5,451 nt of DNA from a virus (Duplodnaviria > Heunggongvirae > Uroviricota > Caudoviricetes): IMG/VR virus record IMGVR_UViG_2728369181_000007. One strand, 5' to 3'. A program made the translations under genes and the position numbers. Positions 681 through 5,215 of this stretch are shown one piece after another. The notes under the pieces are model-generated. The model saw nothing but the letters and a program-made list of their open reading frames with translations. It did not search any database and had not been told where the DNA came from. The first letter of the stretch is position 1. Each line of letters begins with the position of its first letter.

Positions 681-962
681 TTAGTGATTTTCTTTGCCCT
701 TCTGTTTGACTGTTCTGACCTGTTCCCACTCGATACGTCCTTCTTCTCGCCTTTTGTCTATGTATTCCGCAAGATCCTGAATATTGATGCAACGTTTTGC
801 TTTTTGTGATGTGCCGATGCGATATGTTGGAACGGGCAACTTACAAGCGTTTGCTTTTGCTTCTGCCGTGGCTGGACTCATACCAAAGTACTTTTGGCTA
901 ACTGCTGAGAGTTCAATGTTTGGGGTATTGAATTCAGCCATCAGTAAAAACAAGGTGTTCAT
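681..962 (-). CDS. small excisionase-like / PrtN-like DNA-binding protein, 93 aa
   Basis: Minus-strand ORF with TAA stop at 683-681. Preferred start is ATG at 962-960, preceded by GGAG (revcomp of 968-971) 6 nt upstream; alternative in-frame starts are ATG 974 and GTG 989 (the track's 102-aa form). It is the last gene of the operon, directly after the exonuclease, which is where the excisionase gene torI lies in KpLE1. The family assignment is from memory of similar prophage proteins and is not verified. Confidence 0.5.
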   Translation of the reverse strand: MNTLFLLMAEFNTPNIELSAVSQKYFGMSPATAEAKANACKLPVPTYRIGTSQKAKRCINIQDLAEYIDKRREEGRIEWEQVRTVKQKGKENH

Positions 963-998
963 AATTTTCTCCATCAAAACCGGCTGCACCCGGGAAAA

Positions 999-2139: not shown

Positions 2140-2331
2140 CTATTTCACCTTAATCTCAACATTTCGCAGCTTTAGCTCTACTGGCAGGTCTGACTTTCCT
2201 GTTAATGCTAATGCGAGATTTTCTGGAGTAATGAGAGCAGTTATTGTTTTCCCCCTCGCCAGACGAATAATCATTCGTATTTCGCGATCGTCACATGCTC
2301 CCGGTCGAACAATTGATATTTGTCCGTTCAT
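2140..2331 (-). CDS. small hypothetical protein, 63 aa (MNGQISIVRPGACDDREIRMIIRLARGKTITALITPENLALALTGKSDLPVELKLRNVEIKVK)
   Basis: Internal ATG at 2331-2329 of the track ORF 2140..2412, preceded by GGAGAGTGAG, and beginning 1 nt after the upstream gene's stop. The longer 90-aa form would overlap the preceding CDS by 80 nt in another frame. Stop TAG at 2142-2140. No family recognised. Confidence 0.45.
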   Translation of the reverse strand: MNGQISIVRPGACDDREIRMIIRLARGKTITALITPENLALALTGKSDLPVELKLRNVEIKVK

Positions 2332-2332
2332 C

Positions 2333-2860
2333 TCACTCTCCTTTGATGCGAATGCCAGCGGCGCGTGGCACATTAACTTCCACGATGCGCACAGTTGGTT
2401 TGTACATCTCAATCGCAGTCAGCCAGTCAGCTCCTGTCATGCGCTTTTCCGCATCGCCATTAGTCCACTGAACCGGTACACCAATAGCCTTCATCGCGAT
2501 TTCTATTTCCCCGGCAATGGCGCTTTTTCCGCAACCAGTAAAACCAGATACAACGACAAGAACTTCGCCTTTGGCTGGTTTTATTTCCCGTGCTTCCAGT
2601 TCTGCAATACGCTTTTTTGCTGCTTCCAGTTCATCCAGTAATTCCAGCACGGTAGCCGGATTAGCCTTGGCAACAAAATCCCGGACTGGCTTACAATCAA
2701 TCTCCGCAATGGGTTGATACGATGTGTAGCCATGCTGTCTTGTATAACTACCGTGACGAATAACGAAAAAATCACCGTTTATTTTTTTAGCCTGCCACTT
2801 ATCTTCACCGGCTTTCACTGCCGCCTCACGCAGTGCCTGATAGTCAATTTTGTTTGTCAT
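2333..2860 (-). CDS. Ead/Ea22-like prophage protein with coiled-coil segment and a C-terminal Walker A-like motif, 175 aa
   Basis: The N-terminal region (DYQALREAAVKAGEDKW...) and a coiled-coil stretch (LELLDELEAAKKRIAELEARE) resemble Ea22-like proteins. GFTGCGKS fits the Walker A pattern GxxxxGK[ST]. ATG at 2860-2858 overlaps the upstream TGA as ATGA; stop TGA at 2335-2333. Confidence 0.65.
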   Translation of the reverse strand: MTNKIDYQALREAAVKAGEDKWQAKKINGDFFVIRHGSYTRQHGYTSYQPIAEIDCKPVRDFVAKANPATVLELLDELEAAKKRIAELEAREIKPAKGEVLVVVSGFTGCGKSAIAGEIEIAMKAIGVPVQWTNGDAEKRMTGADWLTAIEMYKPTVRIVEVNVPRAAGIRIKGE

Positions 2861-3735
2861 GTAACTACCTCTTCGAATTTCAACTCCAGTTGATCACCCC
2901 AGATTTCACATGACTCTGAACACGAGCCGGTATCGAATCGCCCGGCCTGCACCATCGCCTGATACAAATTCCAGTAGTCGCTGTCGGCATACATTCTGGC
3001 AATCCCTTCAAGACTCAGATGACCACGGTACATAACGTCTTTACCTGTTCTGCGATGACCGTCCCTGACGTGTTGGCCTGTAACCAGTTCATTAAAAACC
3101 CGCATCAGGCCAGGTTCGTCCTTACATGCAAGCCCCAGCTTTTGCGTTGACTTTTTGATGCAGAAAACACAGTTCCCGAGGTGCTCAGGGATAAGTAAAT
3201 CGAACGGCTGTTTACGCCACCACCGGATAACATCCGACTTATCAAAATCTGACAGTTCGGCGAGATACCGGACGCCCGGTTTCGGTTTCAGCCTGCGGGG
3301 TTCGTCTGCACGAATACCCAGCCATGTGATGTAATTCCCTCGCCCAAAATGGTCATCGCAATATTTCGTGAAAGGGGTGAGTTTTAGCCTGTCAGTACAG
3401 AATGCGCCGCCGATGTATGGCGTACCGTACTTTTTAACCATGTCCATAAACGGTTTAAGCACCGGCATTCGCGTCTGAATATCCTTTGGTTCCCATTCCG
3501 TATAACCATTTGGCTGCCCAAGCTCTGGATTTATATCGACCTGCAACACAGTTAGCGGTATGCCCCAGAACTTCACAACCTCCCGAATAAAGCGGTATGT
3601 CAGCGGATGTTCGCAACCGGTATCCATAAAGATGTAGCAGACGTTATTGCCAGCCTTTCTTTGTTCTTCCATCAGGTGAACAAGATATGCAGATGTTCTC
3701 CCGCCAGAAAAACTAACTACATGAGTTATGCACAT
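2857..3735 (-). CDS. PP-loop ATPase, phosphoadenosine phosphosulfate (PAPS) reductase family protein, 292 aa
   Basis: N-terminal PP-loop SFSGGRTS (res 8-15) followed by FMDTG (res 36-40), typical of the PAPS reductase/ATP-sulfurylase-like fold. Two Cys pairs, CVFC (res 189-192) and CSESC (res 272-276). ATG at 3735-3733 overlaps the yfdR 3' end by 10 nt; stop TGA at 2859-2857. Confidence 0.8.
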   Translation of the reverse strand: MCITHVVSFSGGRTSAYLVHLMEEQRKAGNNVCYIFMDTGCEHPLTYRFIREVVKFWGIPLTVLQVDINPELGQPNGYTEWEPKDIQTRMPVLKPFMDMVKKYGTPYIGGAFCTDRLKLTPFTKYCDDHFGRGNYITWLGIRADEPRRLKPKPGVRYLAELSDFDKSDVIRWWRKQPFDLLIPEHLGNCVFCIKKSTQKLGLACKDEPGLMRVFNELVTGQHVRDGHRRTGKDVMYRGHLSLEGIARMYADSDYWNLYQAMVQAGRFDTGSCSESCEIWGDQLELKFEEVVT

Positions 3736-4262
3736 TTGCGTAATTCCGATAACTCGTTGAAGCGTTCCATAAACATCCCGTAGGCATGGCCCGGTGCCAG
3801 TGGAATCACTTTGAACATCTCTGTTGCCGGGATACCTTCCAATACAGGCCAGAAAGAGCCATCATCAAGTCCGAGATCGCGGCGTTCGGTTGCCAGCATG
3901 ATGAGATCGGCATATTTCACTGGCGTGCTCATAACAGGAGGTAACCCGTATTTCTCACGGATTACGGCGTCTATTTTTTCTTCCATCCGTTTATAGTCAG
4001 GAAGAAGTCGTTTCAGTGGTGCGGGGATGTCCTGGCAATACGCTTCTGTTGCATCATGCATTAACGCTTCAAAAGCAAATTCCTGCGGCACCAGCTGGCT
4101 GCAAAGCACCGCATGCTGGGCGACACTGTAGAAGTGTGAAAGATGTCCTGCAAAGCGACAGATATTTGAAAGGGAAACCGCGATATCGTTAATCACGATG
4201 TCGTCTTTATTTATCTTGTCATAATAAAAATGCTTCCCGGAAAAAGTTTTAATAAATGACAT
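3726..4262 (-). CDS. yfdR: HD-domain phosphohydrolase (5'-deoxynucleotidase-like), YfdR homolog, 178 aa
   Basis: The H...HD motif (AQHAV ... LMHDATEAY) marks an HD domain. I chose the internal ATG at 4262-4260 (MSFIKTFSGK...), preceded by GGAG (revcomp of 4269-4272) 6 nt upstream, giving 178 aa, which matches my recollection of K-12 YfdR. The track's 199-aa form starting at 4325 has no comparable RBS. Stop TAA at 3728-3726. Confidence 0.85.
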   Translation of the reverse strand: MSFIKTFSGKHFYYDKINKDDIVINDIAVSLSNICRFAGHLSHFYSVAQHAVLCSQLVPQEFAFEALMHDATEAYCQDIPAPLKRLLPDYKRMEEKIDAVIREKYGLPPVMSTPVKYADLIMLATERRDLGLDDGSFWPVLEGIPATEMFKVIPLAPGHAYGMFMERFNELSELRKCA

Positions 4263-4356
4263 TTCGTTCTCCACTTTATATGCGCTGCACCGCGCTGAAT
4301 TCGGGTAAAAGGAATCCCGCACCATCCGGCGATTATTGAGTTAATTACGTTTCCAT

Positions 4357-4390: not shown

Positions 4391-5215
4391 TCAGGCGGTG
4401 AAAGTACCAATAAAGGTTTCTACTTTGCTGTCTTTGAATTTCTCAACAAGCAGATCACGAAATTCGTTAGCCATTTCTTCCTGCACTGCTTCCAGCTGAA
4501 TAATGCGCAGAACCAGTACAGGACGATCGCCAGTGATAATGCTGAGGCGTAATTTAAATGGACGTTCTTTCAGACCTTCAAACGGAACGCATTTAAATTC
4601 AAATGCCACTGGCATAATGTCTTTGGTCTTCGCTTCGACAGACTCCATCAGGGAGCGTTTGCCGCTGAAGTCATTATCTTCAAAATCAGCGGTCTGGTTC
4701 GCTTCAATTGTGATTTTACGGATCGCCGCAGCCGCTTTGGTTGCCTGAATGGCGTCACCATTAGCATCAAAGCCCACAAGGTAGTCGGCCCAGTCTTCAA
4801 TCCATTCTGCCAGTGACTTCTGGGAGTTACGCTCGCCATTAACAGACAACAGAGCAGAGAACGGTGCTGTCTTTTTCAGTTTGAGAGTGGCGGTGTTATC
4901 TGCGTGACCTGGTTCATCAATAGTACCCAGGTTAAGCACACTGACGGCTCGCATATTATCGGCATCGATAAAGCAGCGGGTGCCTTCATCTGCAAGATCT
5001 TTAGAATAACGGGTAAAGTCATCGATGCTGGCAGTGGAAAGTGCACCACGGAAACGGAAACGATTTAAATTAAATTTTTCCAGATCATGAATGCGGAAAT
5101 TCTCAGGCAATGCCACAGCATCGGCACCAATCTTACTGATAATTTCATTAACACCCTGAGCAGAAATAAGGGCATGGATTTGATTAATTGCGGTTGAGTC
5201 TAAGTTCTGAGACAT
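4391..5215 (-). CDS. yfdQ: DUF2303-family prophage protein, YfdQ homolog, 274 aa
   Basis: ORF of 274 aa beginning [12 protein letters not shown], matching the length and, as far as I recall, the sequence of K-12 YfdQ, and lying immediately upstream of yfdR as in KpLE1. ATG at 5215-5213 with GAGG about 8 nt upstream; stop TGA at 4393-4391. Confidence 0.85.

Follow-up and report, generated by a model that had tools for sequence, protein, structure and literature searches.

A conserved and exchangeable 72-residue Walker A cassette with P-loop-like features in an Ea22-like prophage protein

Ea22-family proteins influence the lysis-lysogeny decision through partners. In the published description they are tetramers in which an N-terminal/coiled-coil scaffold carries mosaic, exchangeable C-terminal domains (PMC10834534). 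That study does not mention a Walker A motif or a P-loop domain, and no paper combining Ea22-like with Walker A came up in a full-text literature search. In the laboratory, designed beta-(P-loop)-alpha polypeptides of at least 40 residues bind nucleoside triphosphates (NTPs), polyphosphate and single-stranded DNA, and do so only as oligomers (10.1101/2020.07.30.228619). Here we analyzed a 5,451-nucleotide stretch of DNA (the window) from the IMG/VR virus record IMGVR_UViG_2728369181_000007, in which an Ea22-like gene carries a strict Walker A motif near the C-terminus of its product. The best explanation, to which we give a probability of about 0.6, is that this gene encodes an intact mosaic Ea22 protein with an exchangeable 72-residue cassette, likely an oligomer-dependent binder of a phosphate-bearing ligand, and that the open reading frame (ORF) of 63 codons directly downstream is a separate gene. 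The features of the Ea22-like gene and of its downstream junction are as follows.

2333-2860, minus strand: Ea22-like gene, 175 aa plus TGA stop (ORF list, sequence, Pfam Ead_Ea22)
2588-2851, minus strand: Ea22 scaffold, the N-terminal Ead_Ea22 domain (residues 4-91) ending in a coiled-coil helix (Pfam, AlphaFold2)
2588-2659, minus strand: coiled-coil helix, residues 68-91 (AlphaFold2)
2366-2581, minus strand: P-loop-like mini-cassette, residues 94-165, from KPAKGEVLVVVSGFTGCGKSA to YKPTVRIVEVNVPR (DNA comparison, HMMER, substitution rates, PHROG)
2522-2545, minus strand: Walker A motif GFTGCGKS, residues 106-113 (invariance, AlphaFold2 helix start at K112)
2378-2392, minus strand: VRIVE, residues 157-161, a hydrophobic segment ending in the invariant Glu161 (alignment)
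2332-2365, minus strand: shared junction, with the tail AAGIRIKGE (residues 166-175), TGA, GGAG Shine-Dalgarno sequence and 1-nt spacer
2140-2331, minus strand: 63-aa gene (MNGQISIV...EIKVK), function unassigned (phrog_1222 match)
2332-2412, minus strand: upstream extension of the 63-aa ORF, non-coding in that frame, an artefact of a TTG-start ORF call

The Ea22-like protein includes the sequence GEVLVVVSGFTGCGKSAIAGEIE, and its C-terminal part reads KPAKGEVLVVVSGFTGCGKSAIAGEIEIAMKAIGVPVQWTNGDAEKRMTGADWLTAIEMYKPTVRIVEVNVPRAAGIRIKGE up to the stop. An earlier sequence-only reading of the window had pointed to a Walker A motif with about 60 residues after it. We observed that the motif (G-x4-G-K-S) occupies residues 106-113, with 62 residues remaining before the TGA (2333-2335). 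The Pfam family Ead_Ea22 (PF13935) matched residues 4-91 with 59.7 bits against a gathering cut-off of 27 (E 6e-16), and no Pfam family scored above threshold in the remainder of the protein. In the AlphaFold2 (AF2) model the N-terminal part had helices at residues 7-19, 57-65 and 68-91 and strands at residues 24-27 and 31-34. The last of these helices was followed by a linker and then by a module with its own helices, with the mosaic boundary at residue 93/94. Within the cassette, a hydrophobic segment leads into the Walker A loop (GxxGxGKSA; VLVVV directly precedes GFTGCGKS), followed by a helix and a hydrophobic segment ending in Trp. The second half consists of a loop with an invariant Glu-Lys, a helix, a YKP turn and a hydrophobic segment ending in an invariant Glu. 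This residue, Glu161, is a candidate Walker-B-like acidic residue. The exact 175-aa protein was present on 32 contigs from independent E. coli assemblies, annotated there as ead/Ea22-like family protein; the gene is intact and an ordinary mosaic member of the Ea22 family.

The limits of the cassette were seen at the DNA level. The DNA of the Shiga toxin (Stx) phage P13374 matched the window up to position 2365 and again from 2582, leaving only 2366-2581 unshared. Similarly, the prophage of E. coli 23CRST027 matched up to 2365 and again from 2624, with only 2366-2623 unshared. For phiV10 and D6, the shared DNA was limited to an interval starting at 2332/2337 and ending at 2614/2630. These sharp mosaic boundaries delimit residues 94-165 (2366-2581) as a cassette, placed between the end of the coiled coil (AELEAREI) and the short tail A[AT]GIRIKGE with its stop. 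Such boundaries fit the published picture of Ea22 proteins with exchangeable C-termini (PMC10834534). The last ten codons (the tail), the stop and the Shine-Dalgarno sequence were common to three unrelated C-terminal domains, those of the window, 23CRST027 and P13374. This junction looks like a conserved site of recombination and translational coupling, one that would allow in-frame swaps of cassettes.

In 43 aligned cassettes, with identity down to 35%, the residues G106, G109, G111, K112, S113 and A114 were invariant, as were G117, G127, W132, E138 and E161. The last of these (E68 in module numbering) did not vary in the jumbo-phage copies of this alignment either, and was kept in the jumbo phage KpHz_2. 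The 40 closer sequences had further fixed positions, e.g. GEIEI, EK, T142, D145, Y153, P155 and N163. The ratio of non-synonymous to synonymous substitution rates (dN/dS) against relatives was 0.02-0.07, with synonymous sites near saturation; judged by these sequences, purifying selection on the cassette is strong. We also determined how often the motif appears by chance: the strict Walker A pattern arose in 0.7% of residue shuffles of the Ea22-like protein and the pattern [AG]x4GK[ST] in 1.9%. A single occurrence is therefore only mildly unlikely, and the real evidence is the invariance across relatives. Together with the low dN/dS, this invariance identifies the motif as the conserved core of a strongly selected domain, and the sequence-only suggestion that it might be a coincidence is rejected.

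The cassette is not confined to Ea22 proteins. An exhaustive HMMER search over 1.84 billion representative proteins found it in 445 protein clusters at E of at most 1e-3 and in 350 at E of at most 1e-10. Among the best 143 of the 445 clusters, for which position and domain context were determined, the cassette was located within 20 residues of the C-terminus in about 125 (proteins of 118-623 aa). In about 14 it was N-terminal, at residues 22-96, and was followed by 60-357 other residues. The Ead_Ea22 domain itself was present in only 28 of the 143. Other arrangements included a mid-protein position in RSL2-like jumbo phages (346-380 aa), a nearly stand-alone cassette of about 85 aa in a Methylobacterium prophage and a cassette protein of about 107 aa in KpHz_2, a jumbo phage of Serratia. 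The hosts, as determined by tblastn of phages and a peptide-pattern scan of genome contigs, were Gamma-, Beta- and Alphaproteobacteria; the scan used a single pattern and found 8 loci, thus informing the host range and not the counts. The cassette matched phrog_11761 and phrog_31825, both of unknown function, and had no curated family in Pfam, NCBIfam or PADLOC.

BcepC6B gp37 has an N-terminal cassette and, after it, a domain found elsewhere in the role of an Ea22 C-terminal domain. This second domain (with VEGFTPEHDDQYGDG and WWKPG; locus 1417-2016) was found in phrog_19550 and phrog_14548, whose N-terminal parts match the Ea22 scaffold of the window. Two different Ea22 cargo domains can thus be chained in one protein.

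All sub-threshold matches of note in Pfam, NCBIfam and the PDB sequences were P-loop proteins: AAA_16 in 42 of the 43 members, APS_kinase in 39 of the 43, and FtsY. The PDB search, made with the protein and two profiles, gave only sub-threshold Walker A matches (E of at least 0.004 for the profiles). Two of them, 6c2u and 9jix, are designed minimal P-loop proteins, and the alignment with 9jix covered positions 4-75. For APS kinase (PF01583), only profile positions 3-40 out of 152 were aligned, with 14-16 bits against a cut-off of 21.1, and the NCBIfam matches had 12-16 bits against cut-offs of 139-244 for APS-kinase models. The cassette was accordingly rejected as an APS kinase: it had no full-length match to PF01583 or to NCBIfam apsK that took in the DGD motif and the APS-binding part, and the GD was not invariant. 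More generally, sequence or profile similarity to a P-loop family did not reach statistical significance.

Structure prediction was made for the module with an alignment of 40 sequences and for the full-length protein with 82. The module model had a predicted local distance difference test score (pLDDT) of 83 and a predicted template modelling score of 0.70; the pLDDT of the full protein was 74.8, and that of the tail (residues 166-175) was below 50. A helix spanned residues 112-125 and started exactly at K112, as in canonical P-loops. The Walker A loop was thus placed between a hydrophobic segment and an alpha-helix, although the strand itself was not seen by DSSP. The hydrophobic VRIVE161 ends in the invariant Glu, and the elements come in the same order as in the first three strand units of kinase-type P-loop NTPases. 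No three-layer alpha/beta/alpha fold, which would need a parallel sheet of five or more strands, was found; the 72 residues hold only three hydrophobic segments.

Several results weigh against a phosphate-binding P-loop element. No profile match reached a curated threshold in Pfam or NCBIfam (the best Pfam E was 3.5e-4, in single members). Both AF2 models showed no beta-strands in the module, though the module pLDDT there was 86-93, and Foldseek against PDB and BFVD found no P-loop NTPase or other match (TM-score by query at most 0.34 against PDB). The GD that follows the second hydrophobic segment and resembles the motifs of APS kinase and FtsY was not invariant, and 2 of 118 distinct module sequences had substitutions in the GK dipeptide. 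The proposed dependence of folding on oligomers would be carried over from other Ea22 proteins rather than from this one. Even the smallest NTPase domains known to us are more than twice as large as the cassette. Given the missing threshold hits, the small size, the strandless models and the Foldseek negatives, we did not file the cassette as a member of the P-loop NTPase fold, and we describe it as a P-loop-like mini-module. The suggestion of a compact nucleotide-binding module, made in the sequence-only reading, thus stood in part. A compact module was the best-fitting option, as residues 94-165 are self-contained, conserved and shuffled between proteins with the Walker A motif invariant; a P-loop fold was not predicted.

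The same strandless models and Foldseek results, as well as the missing curated matches, favor a reading in which the motif is conserved for a reason other than nucleotides. The cassette would then be a protein-binding or structural cargo domain, with the Gly-rich loop serving as a turn or as an anion or protein contact. The C-terminal domain of lambda Ea22 is thought to act via a host protein partner (PMC10834534), and the shuffles produce Walker-A-like patterns by chance at the rates given above. On the other hand, the full GxxGxGKSA string did not vary between E. coli prophages and the jumbo phages of Ralstonia and Burkholderia, at 35% identity, and was intact in KpHz_2. Its context was also canonical, with a hydrophobic segment before it and a helix starting at the Lys, and every weak match was to a P-loop protein. 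We regard the non-nucleotide reading as doubtful while giving it serious weight; phosphate or nucleotide binding by the cassette is likely.

The preferred reading, in which the cassette binds a phosphate-bearing ligand, can be put as a mechanism. The N-terminal Ead/Ea22 domain and the coiled-coil scaffold carry a plug-in C-terminal cargo domain, here the 72-residue cassette. The cassette moves by recombination between the conserved coiled-coil sequence and the conserved tail/stop/Shine-Dalgarno junction, and hundreds of proteins from phages and prophages have it at either terminus or on its own. It is too small for a stand-alone P-loop NTPase domain. The unpaired hydrophobic segments, taken with the oligomeric state of Ea22 scaffolds, point to a fold that subunits complete for one another. 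The coiled-coil scaffold would bring two to four cassettes together, the fold would be completed only when two or more copies meet on it, and a site made of the Walker A loops, E161 and perhaps E138/K139 would bind a phosphate-bearing ligand such as an NTP, a polyphosphate or a nucleic acid. A more specific version is that the cassette is a natural autonomous minimal P-loop domain of about 70 residues, with Walker A and a Walker-B-like Glu, forming a working binding site for phosphate, NTP or nucleic acid only as a scaffolded dimer or tetramer; this version we put forward as tentative, and we would not bet on it at even odds.

The unpaired hydrophobic segments of the monomer models could also be read differently. 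The cassette may be a decoy or poison subunit that mimics the N-terminal beta1-P-loop-alpha1-beta2 part of a kinase-type or SIMIBI-type host P-loop protein of the APS kinase, FtsY or MinD kind, pairs with it, and inhibits or redirects it. The most consistent weak similarity was indeed to APS kinase (39 of the 43 members, best E 4e-4), with FtsY similar over the P-loop up to the 'GD', and the Ea22-like gene adjoins a PAPS-reductase-like gene. However, all these similarities are below threshold, many phages with the cassette have no annotated PAPS-reductase neighbor, and in 23CRST027 the same PAPS-reductase gene adjoins an Ea22 gene with a different C-terminal domain. No host partner is known, and we consider a decoy improbable.

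One could also ask if a deletion in a full-length P-loop kinase gene left the cassette behind as a decaying 5' fragment. In order of elements it covers a P-loop domain only as far as the third strand position, and the weak matches cover only about the first 40 positions of kinase profiles. Nevertheless, 445 clusters have the same boundaries of about 72 residues, the dN/dS is 0.02-0.07, the cassette is conserved across three proteobacterial classes and in jumbo phages, and no relative extends into a larger P-loop domain. The probability of decay is very small.

The downstream boundary of the Ea22-like gene bears on another possibility. As the sequence-only reading had noted, a second ORF overlaps the gene in another frame: the mechanical ORF 2140-2412, with a TTG start, has 90 aa, and its ATG at 2331 yields the 63-aa product. 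The frame is open for 81 nt upstream of this ATG. Stop-free off-frame stretches of 27 codons occurred at 25% of positions inside the genes of this window; hence the overlap is unremarkable, and the open extension is due to chance. The Ea22-like gene ends in GGA GAG TGA, the ATG of the 63-aa gene starts after 1 further base, and the GGAG is spaced 6 nt from that ATG. The boundary is a normal coupled gene junction, where translation is apparently coupled.

The 63-aa protein matched phrog_1222 over positions 1-63 of 63 (E 8e-41), and phrog_1222 and the cluster members start at the ATG. At least 1000 contigs carry the exact protein, and each of the listed cluster members has a length of 63 aa. It was present in 230 phage records (176 covering at least 80% of it) compared to 28 for the module, and more than 200 phages with the 63-aa protein lack the module. 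Virulent Dhillonvirus-type siphoviruses also carry the 63-aa gene, adjoining nuclease genes. The protein had no P-loop family match in Pfam or NCBIfam, and no family in NCBIfam or PADLOC. In the deposited annotation of phage P13374, ORF13 (locus 1241-1474), the homolog of the 63-aa gene, is lengthened to 77 aa by an upstream start and so overlaps the Ea22 gene, which is the same mechanical over-extension as in ORF 2140-2412.

The module gene and the 63-aa gene assort independently. Both were present in the window and in phiv142-3; the module was followed by other downstream genes in phiV10, D6, Tbat1_6 and others, and the 63-aa gene stood behind Ea22 genes with other C-terminal domains in 23CRST027 and P13374. 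The stop codon of the Ea22-like gene has the same place in the close relatives from phiv142-3 and Tbat1_6, and lies within 2-10 codons of it in those from phiV10 and D6. These observations bear on the proposal, also made in the sequence-only reading, that a frameshift or sequencing error in 2331-2412 split an ancestral fusion of Ea22 with a kinase; a fusion of Ea22 with the 63-aa product was considered along with it. The open 81 nt are in line with such a split, and in the relatives P0144 (166 aa) and P0141 the module does read into the alternative frame of the 63-aa gene. P0144, the one genuine fusion protein found, came however from a 1-nt deletion nine codons before the stop, on a contig whose Ea22-like gene is broken up into three ORF calls; it is a derived defect and not the ancestral state. 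Homologs share their end position, the downstream gene is independent and conserved with its family beginning at this very ATG, and both exact proteins recur on the many contigs counted above, so the split is refuted by the criterion which the sequence-only reading had set. Uninterrupted longer homologs were only rare exceptions among the 445 clusters, none adding P-loop elements, and no relative continued from the module into a larger P-loop domain. We assign the split fusion almost no weight; it and the decayed fragment are effectively excluded.

Two other long relatives were observed. P0134 (220 aa) runs 49 residues past the usual stop into unrelated sequence, and P0162 (246 aa) has a 74-aa acidic extension after the module (with FVKFRGQVFEVKETDFDDHDVTLWF); neither extension adds P-loop elements.

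With respect to annotation, the Ea22-like gene should not be flagged as frameshifted, and the start of the 63-aa gene should be placed at the ATG at 2331.

The region around these genes is made of accessory genes of an E. coli prophage resembling the CPS-53 (YfdP/Q/R) region, and the window flanks were 97% identical to the prophage of E. coli 23CRST027. The genes around the finding are all on the minus strand:

4391-5215, minus strand: YfdQ/DUF2303
3726-4325, minus strand: HD-domain 5'-deoxynucleotidase, YfdR-like
2857-3735, minus strand: PAPS-reductase-like protein, 292 aa
1571-2137, minus strand: DUF551 protein, 188 aa
999-1574, minus strand: Rv2179c-like 3'-5' exonuclease
681-989, minus strand: PrtN-family protein

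The ATG of the Ea22-like gene overlaps the stop of the upstream PAPS-reductase-like gene in the ATGA at 2857-2860. The product of the latter also matched the PADLOC models SspD (E 2.5e-15), BrxP and DndC, which makes it a phage-borne relative of sulfur- and DNA-modification enzymes of defence systems. A necessary functional link between this gene and the cassette, to which the APS-kinase-like matches had pointed, was considered and rejected: besides the arrangement in 23CRST027 described above, the cassette occurs in phiV10, D6, Tbat1_6 and jumbo phages with no PAPS-reductase annotated in the flanks examined.

DUF551 has a gene of its own here, the second ORF after the Ea22-like gene. In one Stx-phage Ea22 variant it is fused as the C-terminal domain (PMC10834534), and in a Methyloversatilis prophage a DUF551-like ORF directly follows the cassette-bearing protein. 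At the other end of the window, a plus-strand ORF of 139 aa (1-420) matched phrog_19071, of unknown function (E 3e-31). It had no DNA-level sharing with the otherwise 97% identical 23CRST027 locus, where a Panacea-domain protein and a hypothetical protein occupy the site instead. The site next to prtN is possibly a toxin-antitoxin-like moron site.

The interest of the locus is moderate and resides in the cargo, an uncurated, widely shuffled and highly constrained 72-residue Walker A module. Since Pfam, NCBIfam and PADLOC have no model for them, the C-terminal 72 residues deserve a domain model of their own. Its invariant phosphate-binding motif and a dN/dS close to 0.05 also make the cargo domain a concrete target for mutation (K112, S113, E161). 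Should the cassette prove to bind nucleotides as an oligomer, it would be smaller than any other natural P-loop unit that we know of, and would bear on models for the origin of P-loop NTPases from short beta-alpha fragments. As an autonomous minimal P-loop domain it would be a living counterpart of the laboratory prototypes and a plug-in effector in phages of three proteobacterial classes.

Among known systems, the kinase-type and SIMIBI NTPases, such as APS kinase CysC (PF01583) and the FtsY/SRP GTPases, share a collinear start with the cassette: a hydrophobic strand, GxxGxGK[ST], a helix, a G, a second strand and an acidic 'GD/E' loop. Only about 40-55 residues align, all matches being sub-threshold, and the cassette lacks the further strands, the lid and a Walker B or DxxG in the usual place. 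The designed minimal P-loop proteins (the Tawfik-lab prototypes 6c2u/6c2v and the de novo ATPase PL2x4_2, 9jix) are likewise very small polypeptides with this beta-(Walker A)-alpha element, although the similarity lacks statistical significance. The prototypes have to oligomerize in order to work (10.1101/2020.07.30.228619), and here the Ea22 scaffold would supply the oligomerization. They are laboratory constructs, whereas the cassette is natural and strongly selected.

Lambda Ea22 and the Stx-phage Ea22 variants (PF13935; nuclear magnetic resonance (NMR) study PMC10834534) have the same N-terminal Ead_Ea22 domain and coiled-coil scaffold as the protein described here. They follow the same mosaic principle of an exchangeable C-terminal domain, in the same setting of small prophage accessory genes with PrtN, exonuclease and YfdR/YfdQ-type genes in the flanks. 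The C-terminal domain of lambda Ea22, a dimeric alpha/beta domain by NMR, is unrelated to the cassette, with no PDB sequence or Foldseek match between them; this domain defines lambda Ea22 itself and not the wider Ead/Ea22 family. The cassette is likewise not among the three described Stx-phage variants, one of which has DUF551. The same cassette, at 35-99% identity by tblastn, is found in phiV10 gp48, D6 orf100, BcepC6B gp37 and RSL2 ORF127, where it is joined to different partner domains.

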